Source of the DNA: Escherichia phage EF2-1
Strand: one strand, 5' to 3'
DNA length: 42,599 nucleotides
Sequence record: PQ571290
Shown: piece by piece, positions 18,490-18,759 of the stretch
Layout: every line of letters starts with the position of its first letter
How positions within the stretch are numbered: position 1 is the first letter of the stretch
Program-made: the position numbers and the translations under genes
Notes under the pieces: generated by a model
Databases searched by the model: none
What the model was told of the DNA's origin: nothing
The model's input: the letters and a program-made list of their open reading frames with translations, nothing else

Positions 18490-18759
18490 ATGGCAAATTT
18501 CAGTGAGGCGCTTATTGCTGTTAAGAAAGGCGGTAAGATTGCAAGAAGCGGGTGGAACGGTTCTGGCCAATTTGTAATCAAAGCTGGGGGATACGTAGTA
18601 GCCGAAGCTCGCCCAGACTCTGATTATGCAAAAGCAGGCATTGAGGGTTCTTTTAATATCCAGCCGCATCTCGATCTTAAGAACGCCCATGGTCATATGC
18701 AGCCGGGTTGGGTTCCTTCGCAGGGTGATTTGTTCGCCGAAGACTGGCTCGTACTTTAA
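18490..18759 (+). CDS. DUF2829-family small protein (Tad2-like candidate nucleotide-signal sponge)
   Basis: 89 aa; N-terminal FSEALIAVKKGGKIARSGWNG and C-terminal W-x-PSQ-x-DLFAEDW match the DUF2829 pattern as recalled; AAGAGG RBS. Confidence 0.5.
   Translation: MANFSEALIAVKKGGKIARSGWNGSGQFVIKAGGYVVAEARPDSDYAKAGIEGSFNIQPHLDLKNAHGHMQPGWVPSQGDLFAEDWLVL

Follow-up and report, generated by a model that had tools for sequence, protein, structure and literature searches.

A Tad2-family protein encoded behind the major capsid gene of Escherichia phage EF2-1 is a probable sponge for TIR-derived ADP-ribose signals

In Escherichia phage EF2-1, a small gene for an 89-aa protein lies between the major capsid gene and further virion genes, and this position raises the question of whether the product belongs to the phage head or serves the phage in some other way. 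An earlier note had read it as a DUF2829 (Tad2-like) protein and hence as an anti-defence candidate. We examined the gene within the whole stretch of DNA available (42,599 nucleotides, sequence record PQ571290; "the window" below), which by its sequence appears to be a 42.6-kb Kagunavirus-like genome. The region 17000-20200 matched 482 phage records, mostly Salmonella and Escherichia Guernseyvirinae, and the best matches were E. coli siphophages of the Kagunavirus type, among them EC3-1 (91.8% identity) and K1ind2. The features of the locus are as follows.

17381..18430, plus strand: major capsid (head) protein gene (phrog_247, E = 1.7e-119), directly upstream
18446..18467, plus strand: post-capsid hairpin of 9 bp with a UUCG loop, from terminator scan and RNA fold
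18478..18484, plus strand: Shine-Dalgarno AAGAGGT, read from the sequence, 5 nt upstream of the Tad2-like ATG
18490..18759, plus strand: Tad2-like (DUF2829) gene, ATG start, 89 aa, predicted homotetrameric ADP-ribose-signal sponge
18495..18778, no strand assigned: inserted cassette of 284 bp, a clean gap in the alignment with EC3-1 and K1ind2
18763..18767, plus strand: replacement Shine-Dalgarno AGGAG for the head-fibre gene, cassette-borne and absent in insert-less relatives
18774..19028, plus strand: head-fibre/virion structural gene (phrog_1954 and phrog_4366), intact and moved 284 bp downstream

After the Tad2-like gene, the order of genes is head fibre, Hoc-like decoration, a 59-aa gene and the head-tail adaptor. 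The head module holds two Hoc-like Ig-domain head-decoration genes (15295-15756 and 19039-19389; phrog_3945 and phrog_4069). An Rz-like spanin gene (16099-16485) has an embedded out-of-frame ORF (16331-16594) at the site annotated as a second spanin in relatives (Rz1-type); this spanin gene stands between the Hoc-like decoration and scaffold genes, far from the endolysin gene (Phage_lysozyme, 8056-8595); the annotations of K1ind2 and EC3-1 have the same spanin layout.

Retranslation of 18490..18759 gave exactly the protein quoted in the earlier note (MANFSEALIAVKKGGKIARSGWNGSGQFVIK...GWVPSQGDLFAEDWLVL), and this open reading frame lies far beyond chance, with a Pfam match at E = 9e-23 and a dN/dS of about 0.1. 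The match was to PF11195 (Thoeris anti-defense 2-like), with 81 bits against a cutoff of 25 and over profile positions 2-72 of 73, which bears out the family assignment of the note. Among PHROG families, the protein matched phrog_1048 and phrog_872, both of unknown function, and NCBIfam held no model matching it. When the protein was compared with PDB sequences by phmmer, all matches above noise were Tad2-family chains, including SptTad2 (3.8e-12), ModTad2 (1.3e-11), HgmTad2/AcrIIA7 (4e-9) and SPO1 Tad2 (6e-8). The AlphaFold2 monomer model, based on an alignment of 53 homologues, reached a pLDDT of 94.2 and a pTM of 0.80. It consists of a helix at residues 4-12, strands at 17-19, 28-32, 35-37, 55-57, 60-64, 70-72 and 86-88, and helices at 45-48 and 78-82, and reproduces the published Tad2 topology of alpha1, a beta-sheet and two loop helices (10.1101/2023.05.01.538930). 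In a Foldseek search against the PDB, the top 24 hits were all Tad2 (E <= 2e-5, TM 0.65-0.76), the best being ModTad2-His-ADPR (TM 0.76), and the next hit had E > 1; the model thus resembles solved Tad2 structures and nothing else, as the note's assignment would lead one to expect. We regard it as practically certain that the 89-aa product is a Tad2-family protein. The family is large and already known, and membership in it is by itself ordinary.

The arrival of the gene at this site could be traced by comparison with its close relatives. Downstream of the capsid gene, EC3-1 and K1ind2 have the same hairpin and ribosome-binding site and then directly the head-fibre ATG. Homology with these two phages runs through ...AAGAGGTAAATTATGGC, stops, and restarts at ATGGCTAAGACC..., and the 284 bp in between equal the spacing of the ATGs at 18490 and 18774; the exact junctions are ambiguous inside the repeated ATGGC(A/T)AA. 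On either side, the capsid gene and the head-fibre gene have 92% and 97.6% DNA identity, respectively, with their EC3-1 counterparts. Judging from this alignment, the cassette was inserted at the head-fibre start codon. Because the 284-bp insertion falls there, the Tad2-like gene has captured the head-fibre ribosome-binding site and ATG together with the first bases of the second codon (the GC of GCx, Ala).

The Tad2-like ATG lies 59 nt downstream of the capsid stop codon (18428-18430). In the terminator scan, the hairpin starts 16 nt past this stop codon; a T-rich tract, UUUUCAUUU, lies directly on its 3' side, and the RNA fold of the intergenic segment has -19.5 kcal/mol (z = -2.8). The earlier note had credited the gene with a strong ribosome-binding site of its own and had placed it behind a capsid-gene terminator. 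Both elements are present, but the AAGAGGT is the ancestral head-fibre site, kept in gene-less relatives, and the hairpin is likewise conserved in relatives without the Tad2-like gene and is an ancestral terminator or attenuator. The composition of the insert is distinctive in GC3 alone, which is 43.8% in the Tad2-like gene against 67% in the capsid gene and 58% in the adaptor gene; the GC content of the whole insert is at the 28th percentile and is no outlier. A search with the right-hand junction, TTTAAYACAGGAGAATTGTATGGC, gave no match in IMG/VR or JGI metagenomes and no donor with that downstream spacer. An E. coli prophage as donor is not supported, since blastn against 5,426 complete E. 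coli genomes returned no match to the gene.

None of the 482 related phage records has a Tad2-like gene at this locus, nor has any among 50,697 phage genomes, and an exact-protein lookup returned no entry for the 89-aa protein in the assembly index. Relatives were reached through P0001. Two contigs from independent Logan assemblies (L005 and L006) carry a Tad2-like gene at the same locus; the protein is 96% identical to that of EF2-1, and the junctions agree to the base. The head-fibre genes of the two contigs share only about 70% identity with the EF2-1 gene. Because these genes have diverged while the EF2-1 copy is 97.6% identical to that of the cassette-less EC3-1, the mosaic head-fibre gene points to recombination just past the cassette junction. 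The head-fibre products of the two contigs (L005:2890-3189 and L006:3457-3756) are 99 aa long and only 47-54% identical to the product of 18774-19028.

The Tad2-like gene is under purifying selection: dN/dS against the L005 and L006 copies is 0.09-0.11, and between lineages the synonymous sites are saturated and the proteins still about 80% identical. Among phage genomes, DNA matches to the gene body reached only about 70% identity and came from the podophages Murrayvirus IME_EC2 and sortsyn and the 77-kb Bas86-88 and EK010. In these podophages, the homologous proteins are 69-78% identical and their genes stand last in an early/middle operon.

We then analysed the positions of related Tad2 genes. 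In the P0011 lineage, the Tad2-like protein is 80% identical and the capsid protein 84% identical to those of EF2-1, the layout is the same, and the RBS-ATG segments resemble a direct repeat (AGAGGTGAATTATGGCTA and AGAGGTGATTCATGGCTA). In the P0004 lineage, the Tad2-like protein is 85% identical but is encoded behind a Gp13-like capsid protein only about 30% identical to that of EF2-1, and the gene has therefore moved between lineages in the same slot. Two IMG/VR loci extend this range: at L020 (79% identity), the gene lies behind a phrog_212 capsid gene and a strong hairpin, and at L046 (41% identity) it is translationally coupled (TGATG) to a phrog_1650 capsid gene. The capsid proteins of both loci have no BLAST similarity to those of the other lineages. 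Tad2-clade genes thus occur directly behind four sequence-distinct capsid families (phrog_247, Gp13-like PF20036, phrog_212 and phrog_1650), usually with a strong hairpin and a ribosome-binding site in between (L007:3970-5267, L020:3045-4264, L046:3093-4273 and L012:3908-5270). Elsewhere in the clade, the upstream gene encodes a minor head protein or an Rz-like spanin, is a phrog_4451 59-aa gene, or is a non-late gene. A rule that the clade always lies behind a capsid gene was rejected on two grounds: 25 IMG/VR loci had mixed upstream genes (spanins, minor head proteins, two capsid families, dUTPase and unknowns), and in the podophages IME_EC2 and Bas87 the Tad2-like gene is the last of an early/middle operon. 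Capsid-adjacent placement is recurrent, not universal.

To compare the predicted binding site with that of a known sponge, the ligand contacts of SPO1 Tad2 were transferred onto the 89-aa protein via a HMMER alignment. SPO1 Tad2 (Gp34.65; PDB 8SME/8SMF/8SMG) is the founding anti-Thoeris sponge and binds 1''-3' gcADPR. It comes from a Bacillus myophage, whereas EF2-1 is an E. coli siphophage, and the two proteins share a length of 89 aa, the Pfam family, the fold (TM 0.65-0.72) and the core ligand residues, but only about 30-39% identity. The contacts are as follows, with the SPO1 residue given first.

W25/N26, W22/N23 in EF2-1: kept
W73, W74 in EF2-1: kept
S76, S77 in EF2-1: kept
D79, D80 in EF2-1: kept
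T65, N65 in EF2-1: changed
D67, H67 in EF2-1: changed
H71, Q71 in EF2-1: changed
T78, G79 in EF2-1: changed

In SPO1 Tad2, T78 makes the sole direct hydrogen bond to adenine and D67 coordinates a pocket water. The HgmTad2 pocket motif (W21/N22, S90 and D93) also aligns to the kept core residues, and its T92, the equivalent of SPO1 T78, corresponds to G79. Among 53 relatives, the core pocket residues W22, N23, W74, S77 and D80 are invariant or at least 90% conserved, as is the string L-x-N-A-Q-G...P-G-W-V-P-S-Q-G-D-L-F-A-x-D-W, with motif conservation somewhat inflated by the collection of this set via shared words.

An exhaustive HMMER search yielded 2,968 representative clusters at E <= 1e-3. 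In the nearest 150 representatives, the residue equivalent to T78 was G in 54, A in 32, T in 31 and S in 23. Since G goes with "LKNAQG...WVPS" and T with "MKTA(D/T)G...WLAS" in this set, the 89-aa protein belongs to a coherent N/Q/G (N65/Q67/G79) Tad2 subclass, and the adenine-side change, N65/Q67/G79 against T65/D67/T78, is coordinated and clade-wide. EF2-1 itself has His67 (18688-18690) and Asp43 (18616-18618) where at least 90% of the clade, including the L005 and L006 copies, has Gln and Gly; it differs from these two copies at four amino acids, at each of which the copies agree with one another.

In two related siphophage contigs, a second Tad2 gene, of the canonical WLASQTD class, immediately precedes the adaptor gene within the head operon (L011:6152-6406 and L014:2364-2618), and its product is 41% identical to the first. 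L011 also has a PF24729 Acb2_Tad1_hairpin gene (2905-3141) just before the scaffold gene. By tblastn, EF2-1 has neither a second Tad2 nor an Acb2/Tad1-hairpin gene. The retention of one gene from each class in L011 and L014 speaks against redundancy between the two Tad2 classes.

Two further groups of solved homologues help to place the protein. ModTad2/MoTad2 (PDB 9EIB and 8V3E), a sponge for His-ADPR (type II Thoeris) and for cUMP and cCMP (Pycsar), is the best structural match (E = 8e-9) and has a similar length and a short insertion. It is 35% identical, does not inhibit type I Thoeris, and has Ser instead of Gly at the T78 position and T/D instead of N/Q(H) at 65/67. HgmTad2/AcrIIA7 and SptTad2 (PDB 8KBI-8KBM, 8WJC, 8WJD and 9KZR) share the core domain and the gcADPR pocket motif with the 89-aa protein. 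Unlike it, they have a 35-41-residue insertion between beta2 and beta5 and a cyclic-dinucleotide pocket (R31, S47, F70 and N85), both absent here.

Published inhibition data allowed the pocket residues to be set beside phenotypes, since 18 Tad2 homologues and 3 controls have been assayed against seven signalling systems (Table S2; bioRxiv 10.1101/2025.08.24.671296). [quoted passage not shown] It has the RSGWNGxGQF, LKNAQG and S-x-G-D motifs in common with the 89-aa protein and differs in W-T-P-S-I-G-D against W-V-P-S-Q-G-D and in Gln against His at 67. At L065, an IMG/VR locus similar to Tad2_68 and with the same C-terminal sequence, the upstream gene encodes a protein of unknown function and not a capsid protein. 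Grouped by the residue at the T78 position, the tested proteins behave as follows.

T or A (SPO1, HgmTad2, 70, 71, 82 and 83): type I inhibited
S (MoTad2 and Tad2_76): type II inhibited, type I not
G (Tad2_68): both types inhibited
Q (Tad2_78): nothing inhibited

This relation of residue class to phenotype rests on very few tested proteins, with a single one for Gly, and is a lead and not a code. As the residue varies across the family and tracks ligand class in the tested proteins, the T78 position is a subclass marker and not a family-defining residue. Of the homologues in Table S2 with intact GWNG and S-x-x-D motifs, 9 of 11 inhibit some Thoeris type; Tad2_78 (SQQD) has intact core motifs and still does not inhibit (10.1101/2025.08.24.671296).

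By analogy with these homologues, the 89-aa protein probably acts as a sponge for TIR-derived ADP-ribose signals. That its ligands are specifically the dual type I and type II set of Tad2_68 is a possibility that we put forward tentatively. Because the predicted pocket departs from SPO1 Tad2 at three positions, we prefer to name TIR-derived ADP-ribose signals (type I and/or II Thoeris) as the target, and not gcADPR specifically.

Among other readings, the protein might bind an uncharacterised TIR-derived or other signal, for example the products of E. coli TIR-I to TIR-IX, and not the known Thoeris I and II molecules. Many of the TIR systems in E. coli work through uncharacterised signals, the three adenine-side positions have changed together across the clade, and the presence of one copy per class in the same operon of L011 and L014 implies non-redundancy. 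[quoted passage not shown]

A sponge for non-ADPR signals only, that is for CBASS cyclic dinucleotides or Pycsar cCMP/cUMP held in the second (A-C interface) pocket, would fit a family that is functionally plastic and in which some members inhibit CBASS or Pycsar. Binding in the second pocket is known for HgmTad2, SptTad2, MoTad2 and Tad2_70; Tad2_73 and Tad2_75 inhibit cGAMP-CBASS alone; ModTad2, a top match in both sequence and fold, also binds cUMP; and CBASS and Pycsar occur in E. coli, with E. coli and E. albertii systems among those tested. The features of the HgmTad2-type dinucleotide pocket are nonetheless missing here: the insertion is about 27 aa and not 35-41, N85 is replaced by P72, the KSLP motif is absent and the RPEDSL segment (R31, P32, D34 and L36) is deleted. 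Together with the full conservation of the canonical ADPR-pocket residues under selection, and with Tad2_68 inhibiting neither CBASS nor Pycsar, this makes the reading very unlikely. CBASS, which the earlier note had proposed to include in co-expression tests, is an unlikely target because the cyclic-dinucleotide pocket of HgmTad2 is missing.

A role as a head structural, decoration or assembly protein is suggested by the location of the gene inside the head-morphogenesis operon, with virion genes on both sides, and by the frequent position of related genes after head genes. It is highly improbable, since close relatives that were inspected among the 482 records matching this region build virions without the gene, the fold is found only in soluble tetrameric sponges, phrog_1048 and phrog_872 carry no structural annotation, and the same clade occurs beside unrelated capsid families and in non-structural contexts. 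Homologues follow an XRE regulator (IME_EC2), an HNH endonuclease and hypothetical gene (Bas87), dUTPase or spanins, and the view of the note that the gene is an anti-defence candidate and not a structural one holds against this alternative.

An AcrIIA7-like anti-CRISPR activity, in which tracrRNA would be bound in the basic groove of the tetramer and Cas9 blocked, is hardly credible in E. coli, the host of the related phages, whose CRISPR systems are types I-E and I-F and which is not known to carry type II CRISPR-Cas9. AcrIIA7 is a DUF2829 protein whose headless forms bind tracrRNA and inhibit SpyCas9 (PMC13133391), and its chain (9kzr) matched at E = 1e-7, but two of the three lysines essential for its RNA binding (K58, K66 and K71; PMC13133391) are lost here, where the aligned residues are K12, S20 and S25, and Yirmiya et al. 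argued that DUF2829 proteins are anti-Thoeris and not anti-CRISPR. Net charge as a further argument against this activity was dropped, as headless HgmTad2 is near neutral too.

For the preferred reading, a sponge for TIR-derived ADP-ribose signals, the time of expression is of interest. The Tad2-like gene shares the strand of the late operon, a scan of the plus strand at 15-21 kb detected no sigma-70-like promoter, and the hairpin would have to be read through; late co-expression with the head genes can reasonably be inferred from this. As the hairpin may stop most transcripts short, expression of the Tad2-like gene could be low. In Staphylococcus and Streptococcus, Thoeris cyclases are activated by the major capsid protein (PMC12578639). 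[quoted passage not shown] In T4, expression of the anti-CBASS genes acb1 and acb2 falls chiefly in the middle and late phases, which agrees with the timing of the signal (PMC13478754).

We propose the following sequence of events. The 284-bp cassette would have recombined into the head-fibre start codon, and read-through of the post-capsid hairpin would now place the Tad2-like transcript within the late head operon. The sponge would thus be made simultaneously with the capsid and tail proteins that TIR proteins sense, and read-through from the capsid gene would have it present when these triggers accumulate. By analogy with solved homologues, the protein would assemble into a homotetramer with two pockets at interfaces between non-dimeric protomers. 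These pockets would sequester, without degrading, the ADP-ribose messengers made by TIR proteins, namely 3'cADPR (type I) and/or His-ADPR (type II). With the signal soaked up, the NAD-depleting or membrane effector would stay off, and the infected cell would not mount an abortive response.

One could go further and propose that the N65/Q67/G79 class is a functionally distinct sponge subclass whose ligands differ from those of canonical T/D/T Tad2 and would be His-ADPR, His-ADPR together with 3'cADPR, or a product of an E. coli TIR protein that is as yet uncharacterised. Phages would repeatedly have wired this subclass directly to the major capsid gene, which would couple production of the sponge to that of the TIR trigger. 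Under this proposal, which we regard as speculative and rather unlikely, the recurrence of the capsid-hairpin-RBS-sponge order across unrelated capsid families would reflect selection for trigger-coupled expression and not just a permissive site.

The locus can also be compared with anti-defence hotspots, or "morons", such as the N4-like anti-signalling hotspot (bioRxiv 10.64898/2026.06.04.730250). As in that hotspot, a small accessory gene is present or absent between close relatives in a fixed slot amid conserved genes, and in related contigs several sponge genes are stacked within one operon. Unlike the N4-like case, the EF2-1 slot lies in the late head operon behind the capsid gene and a hairpin, and the cassette is fused to the start codon of its neighbour.

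Elsewhere in the window, a reverse block (23103-25278, minus strand) interrupts the otherwise forward tail region. Its products are a P-loop protein resembling dNMP kinases (phrog_139), a HAD phosphatase of the PNKP type that is annotated as polynucleotide kinase (PF25109, phrog_415) and an exonuclease of DNA repair (phrog_704). Together they might form a module for nucleic-acid end repair, which would make the block a further candidate for counter-defence. In the early region, a small gene at 5537-5722 encodes a DUF551 domain (E = 1.2e-15), and most of the small ORFs around it (5.0-7.5 kb) have no Pfam match.

Beyond family identity, the resolved cassette, the distinct pocket subclass whose sole tested member is a dual type I/II inhibitor, and the repeated capsid-hairpin-sponge layout raise this gene somewhat above the ordinary. 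Phages of the Kagunavirus type are candidates for therapeutic use against E. coli and are represented in reference collections, BASEL among them. EF2-1 and the near-isogenic, gene-less EC3-1 form a natural pair for the effect of a single sponge on host range across TIR/Thoeris-carrying strains. The pocket signature offers a concrete and cheap way into what sets ligand choice in Tad2 proteins. Finally, the repeated occurrence of sponge genes right behind genes for capsid proteins, which are known Thoeris triggers, suggests a rule that could guide the search for late anti-signalling genes to structural operons, a place seldom examined for anti-defence functions.
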